From: a virus
Lineage: Duplodnaviria > Heunggongvirae > Uroviricota > Caudoviricetes
Strand: one strand, 5' to 3'
DNA: 64,000 nt
IMG/VR virus record: IMGVR_UViG_3300017987_005500
The first letter of the stretch is position 1. The number at the start of each line of letters is the position of its first letter. Made by a program: the position numbers and the translations under genes. The notes under the pieces are model-generated. The model saw nothing but the letters and a program-made list of their open reading frames with translations, did no database searches and was not told the DNA's origin. Below are positions 10,192 to 64,000 of the stretch, piece by piece.

Positions 10192-12398
10192 TGAAAGATA
10201 TTCAATTTTTAGCAGTTGGTCTTAAAAACTTTGGGTGTTATAGAGAAGAAGTCGTTCTTAAGTTTGAGAGCGGGAAACTATTCTTAATAACAGGACCAAA
10301 TGGTGTTGGAAAGACTACATTCTTTGATGCAATGTCATACGCTTTATATGGGAGAACCACAAAAGGTGGTACTGGAGAAGACGTAATAAACAATGAATCA
10401 AAGAATAATTGTAGATGTTGGGTGGATTTTACAGTTGATGGAGAGTTATTTAGATGTGATAGATTTGTAAAATATACAAAGATGGGTACGACTGTTCATT
10501 TGAAAAAGGGTACTGAGACTATTAAGAAAGGAAGTAAAGAGGTAATCCCTTATATTGATCAAATCTTTATGCCATACAAACTCTTTTTGAATACTCTTAT
10601 GTTTACTCAAAAGGTCAAGGATTTCTTTACTGATTTAGGGGATTCTGCTCAAAAAGAAATCTTTCGTAAAATACTTTTATTAGACAATTATATTGATTTT
10701 CAGAAAATGGCATCAAATAAGTTAAGTGATGTTCAACAATTGATTGATAAAATTGTTAGTCAAATAAAAATAGACGAAGGTGTTTTGCAAAATATATTGA
10801 CTCAAATAAAAACAGTTGAATTTCAAGAGGTAGAGTTTAACAAAACAAAAACAGAAGAATTAAATAAGATAGCTACCGAAATAAATTCTACAGATACTGA
10901 GATTGAAAAAGTTAAAACCGATTTAGATGTCTATAAAGCTTTTAATCACGATGCTCAAAAAGTGGATATTCAAAATCATTTATCAACTATTCATAGTGAG
11001 GCAGATTCTATTAAAGCTGAGATAGAGTCTAAATTAAATCTTATTGTATCTCAAAAGACAAATAAAGAGCAAGAGTTTAAACATATTGCAACACAAAAAG
11101 AATCGGATCAAAATTTAATTCTTTCAGAAAAAACAGCTGAGTGTACTAATCATAAACATGAAATTCAATTGATTTATGATAAAGTTATTAATGAAGCAGA
11201 TACTGAATACAATGCAAAATTATCGGAATGCACAGTTATCTCCAGTAAACAAGAAAGACTTGATCAAGATTTAGCAGAATATAAAGAATCATCATTTTTA
11301 GAAGAAGGATCAACCTGTCCGACTTGTAGACAGATTCTTGGTAAAGAAGCAAAAGGATATTTGGACGAAAAAATTGAAACACTGACAAATGAATTAAATA
11401 CTCTAGCACTTGAAAAAACAAGAATTCAAAAAGAAGCAACTATAGAAAGAGATGATAAAAAGAAGAAAGCTCTTGAAATTTATAATGCAGAAATTATAGA
11501 AAAAGATAATATTTTAGCTGAAGTTTCATCCAAACATGCAACTGAAATGCAAGATATTAAAACCAGATTGGATAATGTTTTAGTTAAAGTGAGTAATCGA
11601 GCAACTACTGAAATAGAAGCAATAACCAATGATGGAAATACAAGAGCTGAGAAAATTAAAGTTGAGGAATATACGGCAAATGAAAGATTAAAAGAAATAG
11701 ATGCCGAAATTGAAAAAAGAGAAAAATTAAAAATTGAACTCTCTCGACTTGAAAACGAAAGAGTTGTGTTACTTGATAGACATTCTGAAAAAGATTTAAC
11801 TGAATTTGATAAGAGCATTAAATTAAATTTAGTTGCTAATAAAAAGGAACTTGAAACTAAAATAATTAATGAAAGAAAAGAGTTACCAGCTCTTGAAAAG
11901 AAAGCAAAAATATATGAATTTTGGAAAAAGGTTGGGTTTTCATCTTCAGGTATTCCAAGTATGTTAATTGATGAGTCTATACCATTTATGAATAAAAAGG
12001 TTGCTGAATATTCTGAAAAAATTGCTGGAGGAAGATATGTAATAAGCTTTGATACACTCCAAGCAAGTAAAGATGGAAAACAATATAAAGACAAAATAAA
12101 TGTTGAAGTATATGATACACAAACTAAATCAGATAAGAGAGTTAAGTTCTCTGGTGGACAGACAAGGATTGTTGATATTGCCACAATACTAACTCTTAGA
12201 GATCTTCAAAGCAATTTTCAAAATATGAAAATTAATTTGATTTTATTTGATGAGATATTTGATTCATTGGATGATCAAAATATCAGCTATGTATCTAAAC
12301 TTCTCACTGGGTTAGTCAAAGAAGCATGTGTTGTAATCATTTCCCATAGGCATTTTGATTCAATCGAAGCTGATGAAATTTTAAGGATAGGATCTTAA
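10191..12398 (+). CDS. Rad50/SbcC/T4 gp46-like SMC ATPase
   Basis: GPNGVGKT, coiled coil with CPTC Zn hook, FSGGQ signature, LFDE Walker B, ISH. Confidence 0.95.
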   Translation: MKDIQFLAVGLKNFGCYREEVVLKFESGKLFLITGPNGVGKTTFFDAMSYALYGRTTKGGTGEDVINNESKNNCRCWVDFTVDGELFRCDRFVKYTKMGTTVHLKKGTETIKKGSKEVIPYIDQIFMPYKLFLNTLMFTQKVKDFFTDLGDSAQKEIFRKILLLDNYIDFQKMASNKLSDVQQLIDKIVSQIKIDEGVLQNILTQIKTVEFQEVEFNKTKTEELNKIATEINSTDTEIEKVKTDLDVYKAFNHDAQKVDIQNHLSTIHSEADSIKAEIESKLNLIVSQKTNKEQEFKHIATQKESDQNLILSEKTAECTNHKHEIQLIYDKVINEADTEYNAKLSECTVISSKQERLDQDLAEYKESSFLEEGSTCPTCRQILGKEAKGYLDEKIETLTNELNTLALEKTRIQKEATIERDDKKKKALEIYNAEIIEKDNILAEVSSKHATEMQDIKTRLDNVLVKVSNRATTEIEAITNDGNTRAEKIKVEEYTANERLKEIDAEIEKREKLKIELSRLENERVVLLDRHSEKDLTEFDKSIKLNLVANKKELETKIINERKELPALEKKAKIYEFWKKVGFSSSGIPSMLIDESIPFMNKKVAEYSEKIAGGRYVISFDTLQASKDGKQYKDKINVEVYDTQTKSDKRVKFSGGQTRIVDIATILTLRDLQSNFQNMKINLILFDEIFDSLDDQNISYVSKLLTGLVKEACVVIISHRHFDSIEADEILRIGS

Positions 12399-23152: not shown

Positions 23153-23371
23153 ATGGAAGGAATCTTAGGAGAGCAAGTACGTAAAGAAATTGAAGCGATT
23201 ATAGATGAAAAGATAAATGATAAAGAAAATAAACTGACAAAAGACGAACTCAATGAGATTGTCTCTTCTTTGATTCCTTCATTAGATGAACTTGTTGCTA
23301 AACAAGTAAAACACCATATGGTTCTTATAGCACAGTATGTGATTGAACAACATGGAGGGAAATCAAATTAA
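23153..23371 (+). CDS. Hypothetical protein
   Basis: AAGGAG SD; coupled to the RNAP gene. Confidence 0.55.
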   Translation: MEGILGEQVRKEIEAIIDEKINDKENKLTKDELNEIVSSLIPSLDELVAKQVKHHMVLIAQYVIEQHGGKSN

Positions 23372-26067
23372 TGCCAAAACTACTGGATCAGAAAAAATTC
23401 TGTGAAGATCTTAAGGAAGTGACATCTCCTAAACCAATAATTAAGAGAAGATTTCATCCTGATGGACTCTTCTCTGAGCAAATCTTTGGTCCTATTAAGA
23501 ATTACACATGTCAATGTGGTACGTATTATGGTGTTTCAAAATCTGGAGGAACTTGTCCAATATGCGAAGTTGACATTTTAAGTTCTGTGGAAAGAAGAAG
23601 AAGGTTTGCAAAAATCACTTTGCCAATTCCAGTTGTAAATCCTTTATTTTATGATTTACTTGTGAATTTAGGTGGAAGTGATTTAAAGAAAGTCATTGAT
23701 GTTCTCATGAAAGATGAGAAAAGTATTTTGTATATGCATGAAGATGAATATGTTGCAACAACCGAAGCTTCTGTAATTCCAGAAGGAGCAGCAAGAATTG
23801 ATCGAATTGAAGCTATTGAAGAATTAATTAAAACATTAGCTACTGGACTTTCAGCTGATGGAATTCCTGAATGGAAAATGGTACTTGATAATATTGATAA
23901 ATTGCTTTTACATGAAATTGTAGTATTACCAGCTGATTTAAGACCTGCTTCAAGAGGAATTGATAGCGCACATCAAAAGGCAGATACCATTAATAGATAT
24001 TATACGCAAATTCTCACAAAACGAGAGATAATGCTTTCAACTATAATTGACATTAAGCAGGATAAATCAATATATTATCAATATTATACTCCTCTACAAA
24101 AAGATGTGAATGAATTATATAATCACATCTTAGAAAAATTATCAAAGAAGGAAGGACTTATACGGGGAAATATATTAGGAAAGAGAATTGATTTCTCTGG
24201 CAGAGCAGTTATAATTCCCGACCCGTTACTTAAACTTGATCATTGCTGTTTACCATATCTTATGGTACTTGAATTATTCAAAATTCAAATAGCAAAGAAG
24301 CTTATTGAAAAGAATAAATTCAAGATGATTAATCAAGCAGTTGACTTTATTGAAAAATGTATGGAACTCGACAGTCCCGTATTATTTGAAATTGCTAAGG
24401 AAGTGATTGAAGGTGAAGTATGTATGTTGAATAGACAACCTTCTTTACACAGACTTAGCATGACTGGATTTTATATTACAATATCTTTAGATAAAGTAAT
24501 TAAAATTCACCCATTATCTTGCTCAGGATTTAATGCAGATTTTGATGGTGATCAAATGGCAGTTTATATTCCAATAACTGAAAAAGCAAAACAAGAAATC
24601 ATTGAAAAATGTTTGATCACAAGAAATTTCATAAATCCATCAAATGGAAGTTTGGCACCAACACCCTCGCAAGATATAATATTAGGAATATATGCTTTAA
24701 CCTCAAATGTTTTCCCCGACTTAAGAAATGAGGTTGAGTTTAAGGGCAAAATGATCACGGAAGGGAGGAAAATATTTAATGCCTGCCTTCCTGATGATTA
24801 TCCGATTATTGACGATGTAGTTATAAGCAAGAGACTTATTAGAATATTAAATGACGTAGAGTCAAAATATATATTCTCAGTTACTACAAAAGTTCTTGAT
24901 CATATTAAAAGAGTTGGATTTAAATATTCAACTCTATTTGGAGCAACTATTTCCTTAGGTCAATGTAAGATTGATGGAGTTAGGAGTTTCAGAGATACGT
25001 TATACGAAAGTGATGAAGTTTCAACACAATTAGAGCAAGTTAATGGTTCTTTAGCTACAAATATGCTTAAAGAAAATTTTGCATATTCATATATGATAGA
25101 GTCAGGATCACGAGGTTCTTGGGATCAAGCACGACAAATACTCCTTACGAGAGGGTTTATTTCAAATTTTAATTTGGAAATATTACCTGAACCAATTAAA
25201 CATTCATTGATTGAAGGGTTGACAAGAAGAGAATTCTTTCTTTCAACTTATGGATGTCGTAAAGGATTATTAGACGTTGCCTTGAATACCGGGACCTCAG
25301 GATACCTTTCTCGAAAACTGATTTTTGCATGTGTAAATGTAGAAATTGATCTTGAATTAGAAGATTGTGGTACTGAAGATTGTTTAGAAGTTTATGTTGA
25401 TGATGCACCAAAAGCAATTCTTCTAATAGATAGATATTATGTAAAAGATGGTGAGTATATTAAGATAACAATGGATAATTTCAAAGATATAGTTGGAGAA
25501 GTTATCAAAATAAGAAGTCCAATATTTTGTAAATCTCCTCAGATATGTCATAAGTGTTATGGGGATTTATGGAAAAAACTTCACAGCAGATATGTTGGAG
25601 TAATTGCTGCTCAATCATTAGGAGAATGTAATACTCAATTAGTTCTTAGGACATTTCATACGTCGGGTGTTGCAACTTCCAAAGGAGATATGCATCAAGA
25701 TGATATTGTTGGGGATTTATCAAATGCCTCAAAGAGTCTTCATGATGTAAAGAATAGCAATTATAAAGATATTGTTGATAAGTTATTTAAGATTTACAAT
25801 ACAAATCGAAAAATTTACCATGTTCATTTTGAATGTGTAGTTTCACAGTTAATGTGGGCAGGGTATCGAAAATGGAGACTCCTTGAAAATAGAGATTCTG
25901 TGCCACCTGAGTATATCTCAGTTCAAACGGTACCGAGTAATGAGAGTTGGTTATTAGGACTCGCATTTTCAAGACCAAGGCAGCATATTGTAAGAGGATT
26001 ATTCAAAGCTGGTAATTATCAAGGTGTTATGGATAAACTATTAACAGGAGAGGATATACATAGATGA
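23371..26067 (+). CDS. rpoC: Phage multisubunit RNA polymerase beta' subunit
   Basis: GLFSEQIFGP, Zn ribbon, GKRIDFSGRAVI, NRQPSLH, NADFDGD, TGTSGYLSRKL, TQLVLRTFHT. Confidence 0.96.
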   Translation: MPKLLDQKKFCEDLKEVTSPKPIIKRRFHPDGLFSEQIFGPIKNYTCQCGTYYGVSKSGGTCPICEVDILSSVERRRRFAKITLPIPVVNPLFYDLLVNLGGSDLKKVIDVLMKDEKSILYMHEDEYVATTEASVIPEGAARIDRIEAIEELIKTLATGLSADGIPEWKMVLDNIDKLLLHEIVVLPADLRPASRGIDSAHQKADTINRYYTQILTKREIMLSTIIDIKQDKSIYYQYYTPLQKDVNELYNHILEKLSKKEGLIRGNILGKRIDFSGRAVIIPDPLLKLDHCCLPYLMVLELFKIQIAKKLIEKNKFKMINQAVDFIEKCMELDSPVLFEIAKEVIEGEVCMLNRQPSLHRLSMTGFYITISLDKVIKIHPLSCSGFNADFDGDQMAVYIPITEKAKQEIIEKCLITRNFINPSNGSLAPTPSQDIILGIYALTSNVFPDLRNEVEFKGKMITEGRKIFNACLPDDYPIIDDVVISKRLIRILNDVESKYIFSVTTKVLDHIKRVGFKYSTLFGATISLGQCKIDGVRSFRDTLYESDEVSTQLEQVNGSLATNMLKENFAYSYMIESGSRGSWDQARQILLTRGFISNFNLEILPEPIKHSLIEGLTRREFFLSTYGCRKGLLDVALNTGTSGYLSRKLIFACVNVEIDLELEDCGTEDCLEVYVDDAPKAILLIDRYYVKDGEYIKITMDNFKDIVGEVIKIRSPIFCKSPQICHKCYGDLWKKLHSRYVGVIAAQSLGECNTQLVLRTFHTSGVATSKGDMHQDDIVGDLSNASKSLHDVKNSNYKDIVDKLFKIYNTNRKIYHVHFECVVSQLMWAGYRKWRLLENRDSVPPEYISVQTVPSNESWLLGLAFSRPRQHIVRGLFKAGNYQGVMDKLLTGEDIHR

Positions 26068-29000
26068 AAGTGATTAACCCAAACTTTGTGCTTGATGAAG
26101 AAAATAATATTTTCAGGATTCGAGAAAATGAATTTGGGTCACTTGAGTCCACAATTCGGGAGATGCTAAAACCGGCCGAAGCGCTTGGATTTAGTGTCCC
26201 CGAGTTCGGGATTCGTGATTCAAGGTTTTCGTCACGAGATCTTGCAAGAACAGTAAAACAGAAATTAGTTATTAAATTAGCTAAGGGAGAACATGTTTTA
26301 GATCTCTCAATGGATATTCCAAAATTGATTGATGGAAATTATATCATCATAAATGGAAAACAGAAGATCCCTCAATTTCAATTATTTGATGTTCCAATTG
26401 TAACTCGTGGTAAAAATATAAAAATAAGAACAAATGTAGCAACTGTCGTAGTTGTCCCTAAGAAAGAAGAACCATATATTCATATTACTTTCTTAGGAAA
26501 AATGGTTCCTTTATCATTAATGTTATTTGCATATTTTGGAATTGAAGAAGTAAATAGAAAATTTAACTTAAGTTCTCAAACACCAGCTGACACAATTCCA
26601 ACAAATATGTATGATAAATTGATATCTGATTTAACAATGTTCTATGCTGAATCAGATGGTTATACTCAAGATGACTTTATCAAAGAAGTGGGAAGAATTT
26701 ATTCTCAGTATAACTCAAAATCAAAAGGTGAAGATGTTATGTACGCCTTAGATTTGATAATGGAAACTGATACAATATCAAAGAAACTCTTTATCACAGA
26801 TACTATATTGGATGAAGTTGTTTATGCAATTGAGCACCCTGACGATTTTGATGACACAGACTTTATCAATAAGAGAATAAGATGTTATGAATATATTCTT
26901 TTATCAAAAATATCCAAATATATATTTGACTTATGTATGTCAAATAGGACTGCGAGACAACCGAAATTTAATGTAAATTCAACAAAGATATTATCAGAGT
27001 GTAATGTATCTGACATTGTCCAATTTGATTTTTCAATAAATCCAGTTGAAGAACTTACAAGACTTTCAAGAACAAGTCTCATAGGTCCGGGTGGTTTTAA
27101 AAGAGAAAATGTTCCAGAGCATCTTAGAGATATTTCAAATAGTATGTTTGGCAGAGTTTGCTCAGTTGATACTCCTGATAGAGATAACTGTGGAATATTA
27201 CAAAACTTAGTACCAAATGTTAAACTTGATGAAAATTTGAAATTCACAGATGAAATATTAGAGAAGCAACCCATTTCAATTCCAGTTGCAATGGTACCTT
27301 TCTCAGAGCATGATGATCAAACCAGACTTCAAATGGCATCATCTCAAATGAGACAATCTGTATTAACAAAAAGTTTTGATTCACCTGATGTATATTCTGG
27401 GAGTGAATGGTTATATTCAAAAGAAACCCAGTTTTTGAAAGCAGCAAAGAAAGATGGTGAAGTTGTTTATACAGATGATAATTATATAATTGTTGTCTAT
27501 GATGATAATGAAGTTGATATAATCAATGTTTCTTATAGAAAGATATATGTAGGAAATATGGATTGGATGAAAATATATGTGAAGCAAGGAGATAAAGTTA
27601 AGAAAAATGATATTCTTGCTGAGAGTATGTTTATGAATGATGGTAAAATCAACTTTGGTCGAAAGTTGTTAACTGCTGTAATTCCTTATTTTGGATATAA
27701 CTATGAGGACGGAATTGTTATATCTGATAGAATAGTTGAGGATGATGTTTTCACTTCAATGCATTATGTTGATTTATCATTTACAATTCCACCAAATAAA
27801 GTTTTATTAAGTTTATCTAATGATGGTGAATATAAACCATTACCTGAAGTTAAAGATCCTGGAGGAGGAAAACCTATAATTCATGATAGGATAGGAGTTG
27901 GAAAACCTTATGCTATAATGAAAGATATTAATTCAGGTATACATTGTTATAGTGTATTTGATGAAGAAATTAAACTGACCGCTAAAAAACAAGTGTTAAT
28001 CTCAGAGGTTAATATTTACCCGAACACTTGGAACACTGAAATGCCTCAATATGACAAATGGGTTAAAGATAAAATTGAAAGTCAAAAGAAAAAGCAAAAA
28101 GACTTTCTTAAAATGTTAAAAGATTATATACCAAAATCTCAAATGAGTAAAATTATAAGAGAGGAAGGACTTAATAAATTCTCTCAAGTTGGAAAATATA
28201 GATATAAGAGAGAAGAGATAAATGGTATTCATATTGAGATGTATGGGATTTTTGAAAGAAAAATAAATCCTGGTGATAAGATTGCAAATCGACATGGTAA
28301 TAAAGGTGTTATTTCAAAGATAATGCCAAGAGAAAAAATGCCAAAACTTCCTGATGGGAGACACGTGGATATTTGTATCAACCCACTTGGTATTATAAGC
28401 AGGATGAATATAGGACAAATATTTGAGTTGCATCTCTCAATGTCCGTAAATGATTTAAGACAAAAGATGTTAGAGTCATTGAAAAATGGCGGAAAAAGAG
28501 AAGACCTTATCAATTATTTCCTTGGTTATATCAAATGCATTGACAATACTGAGAATAATTGGTATACTACACAAATGGTGGAGAAGCTAAAAGATATTGA
28601 AATTGACGAAGATTTCATCAATAACATATTTGTAATTCAACCTCCATTTGAATCAGTGACATTAGAGATGCTTGATCAGGCAATGCAATATACAAATACG
28701 GACTACGATTATAAATTACTTGATCCAATGTCAAAAAGTGAAATATTCAATGATATCGCAGTCGGGTATATATATTTCTTTAAAATGGTCCATATTGCTG
28801 AAAACAGATTAGCAGCAAGAGGAATTGGATCTTACTCAAGAAAGACTTTGCAACCTCTTGGGGGAAGAAGGAATAAAGGTGGGCAGAGATCTGGAGAAAT
28901 GGAAATGGCATGTTTAATAGGTCATGACGCTGCCACAAACTTAAATGAATTTACGACTACGAAGTCAGACTGCATTGATAGGAAAAATAGATATATCAGA

Positions 29001-29120
29001 GCAGAGATTGAGTCTACAGAGTTTGACCCAGATAAAGATGATGATGGATGCAATATTGCTGAGTCAGTTCTCTTATTTGAATCATCTCTAATATGTGTAG
29101 GACTTGATCCAAAGGATTAA
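26064..29120 (+). CDS. rpoB: Phage multisubunit RNA polymerase beta subunit
   Basis: GRVCSVDTPD..NCG, EHDDQTRLQMASSQMRQ, GYNYEDG, GDKIANRHGNKG, NPLGIISRMNIGQ, GGQRSGEME. Confidence 0.96.
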   Translation: MKVINPNFVLDEENNIFRIRENEFGSLESTIREMLKPAEALGFSVPEFGIRDSRFSSRDLARTVKQKLVIKLAKGEHVLDLSMDIPKLIDGNYIIINGKQKIPQFQLFDVPIVTRGKNIKIRTNVATVVVVPKKEEPYIHITFLGKMVPLSLMLFAYFGIEEVNRKFNLSSQTPADTIPTNMYDKLISDLTMFYAESDGYTQDDFIKEVGRIYSQYNSKSKGEDVMYALDLIMETDTISKKLFITDTILDEVVYAIEHPDDFDDTDFINKRIRCYEYILLSKISKYIFDLCMSNRTARQPKFNVNSTKILSECNVSDIVQFDFSINPVEELTRLSRTSLIGPGGFKRENVPEHLRDISNSMFGRVCSVDTPDRDNCGILQNLVPNVKLDENLKFTDEILEKQPISIPVAMVPFSEHDDQTRLQMASSQMRQSVLTKSFDSPDVYSGSEWLYSKETQFLKAAKKDGEVVYTDDNYIIVVYDDNEVDIINVSYRKIYVGNMDWMKIYVKQGDKVKKNDILAESMFMNDGKINFGRKLLTAVIPYFGYNYEDGIVISDRIVEDDVFTSMHYVDLSFTIPPNKVLLSLSNDGEYKPLPEVKDPGGGKPIIHDRIGVGKPYAIMKDINSGIHCYSVFDEEIKLTAKKQVLISEVNIYPNTWNTEMPQYDKWVKDKIESQKKKQKDFLKMLKDYIPKSQMSKIIREEGLNKFSQVGKYRYKREEINGIHIEMYGIFERKINPGDKIANRHGNKGVISKIMPREKMPKLPDGRHVDICINPLGIISRMNIGQIFELHLSMSVNDLRQKMLESLKNGGKREDLINYFLGYIKCIDNTENNWYTTQMVEKLKDIEIDEDFINNIFVIQPPFESVTLEMLDQAMQYTNTDYDYKLLDPMSKSEIFNDIAVGYIYFFKMVHIAENRLAARGIGSYSRKTLQPLGGRRNKGGQRSGEMEMACLIGHDAATNLNEFTTTKSDCIDRKNRYIRAEIESTEFDPDKDDDGCNIAESVLLFESSLICVGLDPKD

Positions 29121-57899: not shown

Positions 57900-58027
57900 A
57901 ATACTATTCTCCTAATATTTAAGTGTTAAAATGAGAGTCTCTATAAAATTTAGTATTTACTATTCTATCTATAGAGAATAGTACAGTTGACTTCCTTAAG
58001 TAAGTGAATTTGTCTTATAATTAATTT

Positions 58028-58888
58028 TTATACAATAGAAATAACTTTTTGTATAATCTCATTTATATTAGGAATATTATCTATAAACCTAATAACTTTC
58101 CAACCTTCATTTTCAATTAATAATTGTCTTTTCTTATCATATTGTTTATCTTGATGCCAATAACTATCATCATATTCAATTGCTATCATTTCACTTGGAA
58201 TTGCAATATCAATTGAAAAATTTAAACATGGATATTCTAGTTTAGTATCATTAAAATAATTAGAAATTATTTTAAATAATTTAAGTTGAGGTTTGGAAAT
58301 TTTAGTAACTCCAGCTCTAGCAGCTAAAAATCCTCCATTTAACATATAATCTCTTTGGTTGTTTCTAAATTCACTTGTCTTTTGATAACAAGGTGTTCCA
58401 TATTTCACCATACATGTATTTCGAGCCTTTAATAAACTTTCTTCACTATGCTTTTTTCCATAAAATGGATTTTTATCTCCTATTAATTTTTTCCCTCTCT
58501 TAGATAAATTACTCTTTAATTTATTTGCTTTATCAAATCCAAATTGTTGTTCATATGTCTTCCCTTTATTAGGATGAACAGAATTTGGTTGATTCAACCA
58601 ATGTTTATCTCCAAGTTTATTTTTTGAAGACTTGTCTTTGAACTTACTAGAATTACACATACATTTAACAGAGCAATATTTATGATGACCAACTACAAGA
58701 TTAACCCATTTTGTATATTGGTTGCATCCTTTATAGTTTCCATAATTTAAACAAATATCATCACCATCATTCTTTATATATTTATCATAATATTCTTTTG
58801 ATTTAATATTATGAATTCTTAAATGACTTGTTAATGCTTTTAAACTTTTGAATTCTTTTCTGCAAATCTTGCATGTAATTATTTTCAT
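58028..58888 (-). mobile_element. Free-standing homing endonuclease (C2H2 finger, NUMOD3-like repeats, DUF559/Vsr-like PD-(D/E)XK domain)
   Basis: CKICRKEFKSLKALTSHLRIH; NPFYGKKHSEES; IDIAI...IEYDDSYWH...GWKVIRF; start moved to ATG 58888 (GGGAG SD). Confidence 0.8.
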
Positions 58889-58976
58889 TTTAATTTCTCC
58901 CGTTAGAAATATTAAAAATGGGTAAGAGAAATAAAACGGGTATTTCTCAAGGTGGCCAGACCCTGTCCCCATTATT

Positions 58977-59896: not shown

Positions 59897-60772
59897 GTGG
59901 CAAAAGCAGCAGATGAAAAGAAAACAGCAGCATCAAAGACAGCACCGAAACGTAAAACAAAAAGTGAACGTGAAAAAGAACTTGACAAAATGGTCAGGGG
60001 ATTTAAACCTTACTATGTTGATGTTACCGGTGAATACATTTCAACAATTTCGGGTTCCCGCCCTGAGGATACTGCTAAACTTATCAGTAAACCCTCAAAG
60101 ACAGTCAATGAAGAGCTTCATAAAATTATGAAAGCTCAGGTTGAACTCTGCCTGCAAAAGGGAGATATTGAAGGAGCAACTGCGGCAGTAGATGCTTTCC
60201 AGAACTCTGGAAATGATTTTTCAAATCCCCTTCATGTTTTTCAACGGGATGAACAATGTGGCAGAAGACCTTTTCAAGGAGCTTATATGTTCTTTGGTGC
60301 CTTCCGAGATACTATAAAGATGGCATATCCCAAAGACTTTAATATCTATATTAAGGTTAAAAATACATCCGGACCAAGTATAAAGCACTTAAGAAAGTCT
60401 GTGCGAGTTGCCCCGGATCATATTTTCCTCATGAAAGATGAGGATAATTACATGGAAGAAAGTGATATTGTTATTGAAAATCAGCACCCTGTTCCTCCAG
60501 ACGTTAAGGGTTTCTCTCGTTTTGAGATTCTCCCAAAAGGAGCTATTGTGAAATACCGACTTGAAGTTCACAGCTGTACTCAATTCAATGCACTTGCTGA
60601 TCTCGAGCTTGTTAAGAAAGTGATTATCCAAAGTGCCCTTCACGGAATTGGCTCACGACGAGCTTCCGGTTATGGCCAATGGAAAGTTAAAAAGATTGAA
60701 TTCCATGAGATGGCAGCAATGGAGGGAAGCGATGGACAAAAAGAGGATGAAGACGTCAGCAAGGCTGCGTAA
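59897..60772 (+). CDS. Stand-alone Cas7/Csm3-group RAMP protein (putative RNA-guided effector, Vipr-like)
   Basis: RAMP motif order: beta1 YVDVTGEYISTISGS; FQRDEQCGRRPFQGAYMFFGAFRD (P.ipgsslkGalR-like); FEILPKGAIVKYRLEV; C-terminal G-loop HGIGSRRASGYGQWKV; GTG start after AAGGAG; no other cas genes in the window. Confidence 0.85.
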   Translation: MAKAADEKKTAASKTAPKRKTKSEREKELDKMVRGFKPYYVDVTGEYISTISGSRPEDTAKLISKPSKTVNEELHKIMKAQVELCLQKGDIEGATAAVDAFQNSGNDFSNPLHVFQRDEQCGRRPFQGAYMFFGAFRDTIKMAYPKDFNIYIKVKNTSGPSIKHLRKSVRVAPDHIFLMKDEDNYMEESDIVIENQHPVPPDVKGFSRFEILPKGAIVKYRLEVHSCTQFNALADLELVKKVIIQSALHGIGSRRASGYGQWKVKKIEFHEMAAMEGSDGQKEDEDVSKAA

Positions 60773-60797: not shown

Positions 60798-61013
60798 ATG
60801 GCAAAAGGAATGGCCGATATGATGGTCGAAACTGCGGAGAAACTTCTTGATGGAGAGGTTCCTTTAAAGACTGGTGAAGTCGTTGCCAAAGTAGGTAATA
60901 TACATCAGCTTGAACGCAAAAGAGATCATGATGCTCACGATCGTGGATTAAATGATGAAAATCTTAAAGGTTTTCAAAAGATTTGTAAACAATCTACGAA
61001 AAAGAAAAGATAG
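60798..61013 (+). CDS. 71-aa protein co-transcribed with the RAMP gene
   Basis: GAGGAGG SD before ATG 60798; MAKGMADMMVETAEKLL...KKKR. Confidence 0.7.
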   Translation: MAKGMADMMVETAEKLLDGEVPLKTGEVVAKVGNIHQLERKRDHDAHDRGLNDENLKGFQKICKQSTKKKR

Positions 61014-61023
61014 CAAATGGATA

Positions 61024-61050
61024 ATGGGGCGAGTTATGAGATCGCCCCAT
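61024..61050 (+). promoter_or_regulatory. GC-rich hairpin between the ORFs and the array (terminator/processing/leader)
   Basis: ATGGGGCGA-9nt-TCGCCCCAT. Confidence 0.6.
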
Positions 61051-63028
61051 CCATGGAATATAGTTATATTTATTCCTCTTTCATGGTTTTCTTTTATATT
61101 TAATAGAATGCATAATATATCGAATCCGATCCTATGACATTCTATGTTGTATAATAGAATCCGACGCAATCACATTTTATTCACTAAAATGGGTTGAAGT
61201 TTAACCCATTTGCAATGTGAGCTATGATGCAACCGAATGAAATCATATTAAATAATCTAATAATTTAATTTAATTTGGTTAAATATTTTGTTTTGGTGTA
61301 GAATGTTATTCCATATTATTAATTTTAAATTCCTTACGTTATGATATAATTCAATTTTATTTGATTCGATTTACATATGTAATATTATTTTATGGGACAG
61401 CATCCATTTCAGTTGGATAAAATTCGATATACTATAAAACTTAATTGATTAGCACGTAATTCAATATAATTCCATCCGATCCATTTTTAAAGCAATTCGA
61501 CACAGTACGATCCGGTCGAATAAGTTGTAATTCAATCATATGCATTATTTTATTTAATGCTGTGAAGTATAATTGAATAAAATGGTATTCATAATTCAAT
61601 GCGATGATAAAGAATGCGGTCCTGTCTCATTGAGTCGAATAGAATGGAATTACCTTTTAACTTAAACTTATTTCAACATGAACATATTCAATGCGATATA
61701 ATGCACAATATTATCTCATCCTATTCAGTGCGAAACTATTGAATAAGTTCCTATCCAATGAAATTCACAATTAAATAATGTATGGTAGCTTGTTTTGCTA
61801 TGCGATTATATTTCATCCATAAGTTTTACAATGCCAATAAATAAAATATGCAGTAAAATAGGCATTGAGAGCTTTTGATTTTATGTCATTTTAATCAGTT
61901 AAATCGAATGTCATTCATAAAAGAATATTATTCGTTATCGTATGGTGTGATTCAATTTAATGCTATGTTATCAGATTCACAATAATATACAATGCAAAGA
62001 TTTCCTAAGAGATCCAATATAATTCCGTAAATCGTAAGATTCTTTGCGACTCATTTTAATTCGTTATGGCGCCGTTGAATAACATAATATTCTCTATTCT
62101 ATTTTACCGGTTACGTTCCTATTTGGTAAAATGGTATTTTATTTGATTCAATGATATTTACTTTGTAATACAATGCAAATATGTTCAATACTATGCGTTG
62201 CTATGCGATCCTATTCATTATACATTCAATTTAATACAATATTTTATAATTGAATAAGGTCTTATAAACTTTTTAATCTTACCCGTTCCTATTTAATACC
62301 ATTTAATTCTATAAATTATTCAACTGGTTAGTATGGGGTATTATGGTTTGTAATTACGTAAAATTGTATACATACGTAATATTGATCACTGTATAATTGG
62401 GTATAATACAATACAATCTATATTTCACTGAATTGACTTTTAACGTATCATGCAGTATTATACAATTATGTTCAATTAAATAATGTTTTATGTATTATGA
62501 TATGGAATAAAGTAATGTAGAAAGAAATCCTATCTGATAGCATTTTATACAATCTATATTTGAATTATATCCATTATAATACAGTTCAATGCGATACAAT
62601 ATAATTAAATTTCATTAATGATTCAATGTTACCGGTTTCGATACAATTTGTTAAATTATTATAAATAATTTGATCAGATCGAATTTAATCAAGCATTTCT
62701 TCTTAATATCTGATTGAATGCTATTCAATATATGATGGATGCGACGCCATTCCTTTGAATATTATGAAATAGTATATTATTCATTATTTAATTAGGTATA
62801 ACAACTTTCAATTTTATATTATATCATTCGATAAAATGAACGTTTTAATTGAATCTATTTCTATACGAAGCCGTTCCATGCTATTTTATGCGATGTCATA
62901 GATCTTTTAATTAGATGCTATGCATTTCCATTGATTGGTACCGAATTCTTTACATTTCATTCCAATTCTATCGAATAAATATCTTATATATTTTATGTTA
63001 ACTTTTTACTAAATTTAACTAAATAAAT

Positions 63029-63075
63029 AAATAAGGAATATAATAAAATTAACTAAAAAATAACAAACCTTATTT
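63029..63075 (+). repeat. 47-nt non-periodic element, copy 1
   Basis: AAATAAGGAATATAATAAAATTAA...CAAACCTTATTT; near-identical copy at 63551-63597; terminal AAATAAGG/CCTTATTT inverted repeat. Confidence 0.8.
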
Positions 63076-63550
63076 AATATGTTTTCCAATGCAGTTGAGT
63101 AAAATTCTATTCATGATTAGATATAATAATTTTATGTTTAATACAATATGGTCAAATGTCTTAAGATACAATTTTATTTAATAAATGATTCGATTAATTT
63201 GAATTAGGTTCGATCCATTTACATAGTATTGTATGGAATAAAATACATAATTTGATGGGTTAGGATGTGATAGCTTATGGTATTATTGAATACAATTTTA
63301 TTAATAATTTCATATGATAAAACTCCATATTATTCTATTCTGTCGGGTTACATTCGATCAAATGTATAAAATATTCGTAATTGGATTCTTTGGGATTTAT
63401 TAAGTTTCGATCCTTTTACATCTCATTCTATTTAATAAATCTTTAATATGACTCTATTTGATTAGATGGAGTTCATTAGCACCCTTTTTAATCTAATAAA
63501 ATATACTTTATTTTATATTACTGTATGAGTTTGGGTAATATGAAATCAAC

Positions 63551-63597
63551 AAATAAGGAATATAATAAAATTAAAATAAAAATATCAAACCTTATTT
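63551..63597 (+). repeat. 47-nt non-periodic element, copy 2
   Basis: Near-identical to copy 1, 522 nt downstream. Confidence 0.8.
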
Positions 63598-64000
63598 ATA
63601 ATACCATCCTAAAAGATGTAATTTTATAACATTCTATTTAATAAATCTCTATTAGGATTGAATCTGATATCATGCAGTTGGATAAGTTCCAATAAAATTG
63701 TGTTTTATATATCATAGAATATTATTCATTGATATCCGTTATCTTATAATCCTGTGTCATATAATATCATAAACCATTAATACTTTATTATACTGTATTA
63801 TATCTTATCCAATTATATGAAATCTCATCCACATGGTATAAAATGTGATAGCTTATGGTATTATTGGATACAATTTCATTGATCATTGGATACTTTTGGA
63901 TTCATTCCGATGTCTTATGATCCTATTCAATGTTATTTATATTTTAATTACATCACATTGATTATGTTCCGATCCGTTAGAATTAAATTAAATGCGATTC

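Follow-up and report, generated by a model that had tools for sequence, protein, structure and literature searches.

The window analyzed here is a stretch of 64,000 nt that forms part of a large marine myovirus, as indicated by Pfam and PHROG matches to a tail sheath, a T4-like baseplate, a terminase, and RNA polymerase subunits. The phage contig spans 163 kb, and the samples are marine sediment and seawater. A further sequence, L001, prolongs the window without differences. On the plus strand, amid tail sheath and baseplate genes, a RAMP gene (59897-60772), a gene for a 71-amino acid protein (60798-61013), and an array of pentamers (61110-64000) follow one another in that order. Between the small gene and the array lies a G+C-rich hairpin (61017-61054, plus strand; fold z −3.3), which might have a processing, stabilizing, or attenuating role. 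The array continues for ~350 nt beyond the window (to ~14450 in L001; ~64350 in window numbering), for a total of ~3.2 kb, and its 3′ end carries a two-way terminator hairpin (L001 14516-14556) facing a convergent gene. Across the locus, Rfam detects a terminator hairpin and nothing else. Promoter-like sites at the array locus show no excess over shuffled sequences, no second array of the same kind occurs in 73.8 kb, and a scan confined to the locus found neither a repeat-spacer array nor further cas genes. The tail sheath gene is separated from the next structural gene by a homing-endonuclease-like gene (58028-58972, minus strand; zinc finger, NUMOD3, and DUF559), and the window also encodes two RNA polymerase beta-like subunits (23371-29120; PHROG matches).

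The 2026 preprint text on the CRISPR-related VIPR systems describes a viral RAMP that stands alone, an accessory gene next to it, and guides built from 9-16 GGY/NN pentamers (10.64898/2026.04.26.720920). According to the same text, the NN pairs read DNA on either strand and skip one base, mostly the wobble base; NNNGG, YNNNG, and NNNNG scaffolds, as well as staggered arrays, are also listed (10.64898/2026.04.26.720920). The account of the SUSP1 structure states that three scaffold bases and the skipped base are flipped out and that a Y3 pocket excludes purines (10.64898/2026.04.26.720927). A satellite recombinase is described as being silenced at its catalytic motif (10.64898/2026.10.15.759431), and the VIPR systems studied are, in these texts, binders of double-stranded DNA.

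The RAMP encoded here is 291 amino acids long, stands alone, and has a C-terminal glycine loop. Its match to the Pfam RAMPs family (E 0.009) falls below the curated cutoff. A search of 1.84 billion representatives returned 45 relatives, and the model built with their alignment (pLDDT 87.5) is predicted to adopt a Cas7/Csm3 fold (best folds Csm3/Cas7; Z 13.0, rmsd 3.3, 163 aligned residues). The solved folds nearest to the model are type III and type VII RAMPs; the set of solved structures ends on 8 April 2026, before the Vipr structures were released, and thus the fold rank says little. The nearest Atlas models are unnamed viral proteins. In hhalign, comparison with the single SUSP1 Vipr sequence gave a probability of 1.2%, that is, no detectable sequence likeness, and no close relative of the RAMP was found in IMG/VR, INPHARED, or 101 Desulfobacterales genomes. 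The 71-amino acid product of the called gene behind it, a candidate vap-like accessory protein, has no match in PHROG and shares 32% identity over 57 amino acids with the open reading frame that follows the RAMP gene in a related locus, L005. A small open reading frame follows the RAMP gene in seven of nine related loci; homology was tested for one (L005) and was positive. In all six related loci for which DNA is available, an N-R-Y-N-N array adjoins the RAMP gene.

The array has a clear 5-nt period: base identity is 0.42, 0.41, and 0.39 at lags of 5, 10, and 15 nt, whereas other lags and a control region give ~0.29. A Viterbi parse, which included the ~350 nt past the window taken from L001, yielded 52 clean units and 563 pentamers. 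The first-pass annotation of this DNA, made from the sequence alone, had described the array as a cipher of pentamers, and this pentameric structure is real. Units range from 6 to 18 pentamers, most having 9 to 13 repeats. The consensus pentamer is N1-A2-Y3-N4-N5, in which position 2 is A in 74% of cases (T 14%, G 11%) and position 3 is T in 92% (C 6%), with a pyrimidine in 97%. The AY spacer of the first-pass annotation stands as a consensus (403 of 563 pentamers) and fails as a constant. That units are 5n + 2 long with a terminal AY is borne out by the +2 register shift at 49 of 68 junctions and by the AT or AC that directly follows 37 of the 52 units. Because AT is palindromic, a minus-strand reading with an A-Y-N scaffold was also considered and judged less likely, given the direction of the genes and the stricter pyrimidine on the plus strand (97% versus ~88%). 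Neither repeat analysis nor the parse revealed a shared or conserved structured 3′ tail between units. The last pentamers of units are enriched in NATTC (13 of 52) and NATAA (9 of 52), relative to 8.5% and 6% within units. These ends are a possible processing signal; the end pentamer of the unit that decodes to DSGGFQ, discussed below, also suits the protein motif.

Decoding followed the first-pass annotation, in which the spacer is deleted and the remainder is reverse-complemented. All six of its decoded examples reproduce, with one terminal stop added to the unit at 62657-62733. In its frame we find 11 stop codons among 563 (7 of them internal), against 26 to 55 in the other five frames and 25.7 ± 4.2 when columns are shuffled, so that the depletion of stops noted there is confirmed. 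The codon phasing of units is thereby supported, while codon position 1 as the start of units and position 3 as their end are products of the parsing and no separate observation. Judged from NN pairs alone at codon positions 1 and 2, 43 to 44 of the 52 units read better as antisense than as sense, which agrees with the single polarity claimed earlier. Two units decode to motif-like peptides: the guide at 61707-61766 (plus strand) to DSGGFQ..., which we take to resemble a TGT/DpdA motif, and the guide at 61981-62030 (plus strand) to LDIGSGS..., presumably akin to methyltransferase motif I.

One guide occurs in duplicate on the plus strand (copy 1, 63249-63303; copy 2, 63832-63881). The two copies agree at 18 of 20 NN positions and 19 of 20 scaffold positions, and at only 5 of 10 first bases. 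The array is interrupted twice by an A-rich, non-guide insert on the plus strand (63028-63076 and again 63551-63597; repeat family D2) with a stem of 8 to 9 bp, of which a weaker copy lies at 57998-58053. The insert folds no better than shuffled sequences and may serve as a promoter within the array or as a site of processing. Contigs from public runs break within the array at 61744-61768, 62750, and 63581-63800, and contig depth falls from 17 to 6 to 3 and from 10 to 5.5. These breaks and steps hint weakly that the population contains variants differing in array length; contig depth does not measure copy number, and the four runs behind the depth steps are possibly two data sets, each filed twice.

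The unit at 63646-63705 (plus strand; 12 pentamers), decoded without N1, gives the His-x-x-Arg box of a tyrosine integrase. We searched 185,579 GTDB genomes for exact occurrences of its 10-codon gapped core (20 bases) and found 12 matches of 20/20, all in frame and all in one integrase family (PF00589). By record titles, all 12 come from Desulfobacterota or related deltaproteobacteria. Rough arithmetic puts the random expectation for the core at ~1 match, and reversed-pattern controls gave none. Extended to the full 12 pentamers, the pattern has two sites matching at 24/24, one in the genome of a member of the Desulfobulbaceae (L013) and one in a metagenome contig of 4.7 kb (L062) that carries a DUF3987 gene near the integrase. 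This guide had been picked out by eye for its motif-like decoding, and the matches are homologues rather than the cognate element. At the level of sequence, the match supports the skip rule, the polarity, and Desulfobacterota as the probable host group of the phage, this host assignment resting on one guide.

Matches to real coding sequences, which the first-pass annotation had anticipated for the decoded units, are so far those of this integrase family, to a single guide of the 52; the other guides tried gave no target. The DSGGFQ guide has none in viral contigs, metagenomes, or 401 Desulfobacterota genomes, the integrase guide and two further guides have no match in viral contigs, and two guides of related arrays have none in our scans. 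Nine viral matches to an FRDGD guide were rejected as chance since their flanks do not match. In 840 kb around integrases, the other guides show no matches beyond a reversed-order control, and an underpowered peptide search of 5.8 billion proteins returned no match. Exact-match scans overlook targets with one mismatch, and the blank target searches are therefore weak. Self-targets above chance are absent from ~69 kb of the phage outside the array.

This locus shares several features with VIPR as its preprints describe it, of which Escherichia phage SUSP1 is the type II exemplar. Both have a phage-borne lone RAMP with a glycine loop outside any CRISPR-cas locus, together with a small accessory gene; guides of about 9 to 16 pentamers with a pyrimidine at scaffold position 3; NN pairs that read codon positions 1 and 2 and skip the wobble base (shown here for a single guide, which matches two integrases in frame at 24/24); and a guide on the catalytic motif of a recombinase, with no self-target found. 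The locus also differs from the published descriptions. The scaffold here is N-A-Y, whereas the listed GGY, NNNGG, YNNNG, and NNNNG all have G at that place. The RAMP has 291 amino acids against ~195 in SUSP1, to which it shows no detectable likeness in sequence, and there are 52 guides rather than 4. The conserved structured 3′ tail of type II is lacking and a +2 register shift is present, and composition indicates one polarity, in contrast to the SUSP1 targets on both strands. The staggered arrays of VIPR likewise consist of tail-less guides that adjoin directly and change register, but their legend describes a 1-nt overlap (fig. S18, 10.64898/2026.04.26.720920), unlike the +2 shift at most junctions here. 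With class 1 CRISPR, the RAMP shares its modeled fold and the glycine loop of Cas7/Csm3 backbone proteins (Z 11-13). The locus differs from class 1 CRISPR in having no adjoining repeat-spacer array or other cas gene, in a period of 5 rather than 6 nt, and in specificity that resides in gapped dinucleotides.

We therefore read the locus, with a probability of roughly 0.8, as an RNA-guided silencing system of VIPR type, carried by a large myovirus whose hosts are probably Desulfobacterota; in its array, N1 partly mirrors the skipped base. The identification with VIPR follows from the layout of RAMP gene, small gene, and array, from the RAMP fold, from the arrays at every related locus with DNA, and from the integrase match under the skip rule. 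Plus-strand transcription of the array, which lies downstream of the RAMP gene, would be followed by processing into guides of ~50-75 nt. By analogy with the published SUSP1 mechanism, one RAMP protomer would cover each N-A-Y-N-N repeat, holding N-A-Y aside and presenting NN. In target DNA, the NN pairs would then base-pair with codon positions 1 and 2 of the coding strand, the wobble base being skipped, a rule that one guide shows in silico. Conserved motifs in genes of mobile elements and rival phages, such as the integrase, would be the targets, and the outcome would be silencing. In the N-A-Y family, the protein would no longer fix the first scaffold base. The array is most likely a divergent form of VIPR, with an N-A-Y scaffold, a very long tail-less array, and a divergent RAMP family.

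The first-pass annotation had gone further and read every pentamer as a full anticodon, N1 included. Part of this stands, in that N1 holds some wobble information. When N1 was permuted within units with N4N5 fixed, internal stops rose from the 7 observed to 14.7 (P = 0.002); pooling seven arrays, 22 were observed against 35.6 (P = 0.0012). A mixture model with real codon usage puts the faithful fraction of N1 at 0.5-0.6 (interval about 0.3-0.75), and in this array the codon-usage signal persists when stop boxes are left out. Permutation of codon-prefix labels gave P = 0.0005, with the complement alone fitting, and controls that took the base from the neighboring pentamer or from position 2 gave zero signal. 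The six related arrays give a weaker signal (fit 0.2-0.25), which disappears once stop boxes are omitted. When Desulfobacterota genes serve as the reference, trinucleotide tables taken out of frame or from the antisense strand fit almost equally well, so the signal is firmer evidence of neighboring bases in natural DNA than of a codon.

The other part of the anticodon claim does not stand: N1 fits only about half the time, and internal stops remain. At the integrase, N1 would turn the conserved arginine of His-x-x-Arg into serine and the last serine into arginine. Wobble matches to N1 number 7 of 12 at the best integrase sites and 52 of 120 (43%) among the homologues, against ~38% expected from the amino acids alone by rough arithmetic. 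N1 acts partly, about half the time, as the complement of the skipped base, and it is not an obligatory anticodon base, because it gives the wrong residue at the integrase arginine and last serine and is shared at only half of the positions between the duplicated guides. The anticodon reading is also inconsistent with the tolerance of synonymous escape inferred alongside it, since guides can tolerate such changes only by skipping the wobble base, as the published VIPR rule has it, and not by reading it.

Could the array read its target contiguously? In such a code, which comes near the anticodon reading of the first-pass annotation, N1 would pair with the wobble base, each repeat would form three base pairs with a 2-nt bulge in the guide, and tolerance would fall on every third base. 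By sequence order, N1 sits directly 3′ of the preceding NN and would extend the helix; its information is complement-specific; and in the integrase of L062, counting first bases too, 31 of 36 positions match, among them five complete consecutive codons. However, none of 16 integrase sites would allow N1 to pair at the arginine codon, and the internal stops and the divergent first bases of the duplicated guides count against obligatory pairing. In the published description, moreover, the SUSP1 thumb flips out all three scaffold bases along with the skipped base (10.64898/2026.04.26.720927). We consider a contiguous code unlikely. The opposite proposal, that N1 carries no target information and that its coupling to NN stems from protein or RNA preferences within the pentamer or from pentamer duplication, would make this an ordinary VIPR with a relaxed scaffold. 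It draws on the lack of excess wobble match in the integrase homologues, the weak signal in relatives, the slight coupling of scaffold positions 2 and 3 to NN as well, and the YNNNG and NNNNG scaffolds already listed in the VIPR text (10.64898/2026.04.26.720920). Against it, the direction of the coupling is that of natural codon patterns (P = 0.0005), stops are avoided, and there is no general avoidance of palindromic pentamer cores (GATC is enriched, TATA depleted). An uninformative N1 is doubtful, if a shade less so than the contiguous code.

Three sources of the single polarity are conceivable: guides that bind the non-template strand may block more effectively, acquisition may be RNA-templated, or the system may target mRNA in the manner of type III Csm3. 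The last would explain why most units are antisense to coding strands and why the recognizable motifs in related arrays share this polarity, and the nearest solved folds are type III and type VII RAMPs. As noted above, that fold rank carries little weight, and polarity is also expected if binding of the non-template strand blocks transcription better, as it does for dCas9. The SUSP1 Vipr, in the text of its preprint, binds single-stranded RNA poorly and silences from either DNA strand. We regard mRNA targeting as improbable. Finally, an A+T content of 75%, together with an AT core whose palindromic nature puts the period on both strands, might suggest a degenerate AT-rich satellite, an origin, or a decayed gene. 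The depletion of stops, the in-frame integrase match, and the link between array and RAMP that is kept in 6/6 related loci make it exceedingly improbable that the array does not consist of guides.

Codon phasing and tolerance of escape are already known, because the VIPR papers report the wobble-skipping rule; the code itself is not new. What is new, and unproven, is the partial memory of the skipped base, for which we found no account in the passages of the three preprints that we searched. We likewise found no account there of the origin of new VIPR guides. A first base that records the skipped base is a possible clue to how guides are made. The explanation that fits best, since N1 is informative yet dispensable and fast-changing, is that guides had been copied from uninterrupted target sequence and that N1 is a relic of this copying, now decaying; we give this slightly less than even odds. 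Weak pairing at the skipped base seems an unlikely source of the signal, and other causes are only a little less so. As a tentative model, which we think somewhat less probable than the relic itself, N-A-Y guides might arise when a contiguous target serves as template and is copied antisense to the coding strand, two scaffold bases being added after every third base; the unread N1 would then decay. If true, templated copying would leave a sequence footprint of VIPR guide acquisition, one that is hidden in GGY systems because the protein fixes the first base there. A free scaffold base that partly mirrors the skipped base makes the question of guide origin testable, computationally and at the bench. 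The known range of VIPR is also broadened by a programmable RAMP that is small, uses an A/U scaffold, and comes with 52 guides.

Recognizable motifs in the guides of the related arrays, which we take to be Walker A, primase zinc-finger, and serine-recombinase-like motifs, have the same polarity as those described here. Another phage with the same RAMP family, L007 (ERZ27256783), comes from a sample whose accession is near that of the studied phage; a protein-level check of L007 against the guides of this array gave no match. In L005, arrays flank the RAMP gene on both sides (95-545 and 1650-2440). In L009, a long single-register tract (11131-11312) decodes to a serine-recombinase-like motif and may represent several guides abutting without a register shift. 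In the arrays of L008 and L009, position 2 is mostly G, which corresponds to the listed YNNNG scaffold. The L008 array (10700-11480) has an N-G-T scaffold, with a short constant delimiter (ACTTTAG) between guides, and fits the published YNNNG consensus. On its sequence, the L008 system ties the N-A-Y family to G-type scaffolds.
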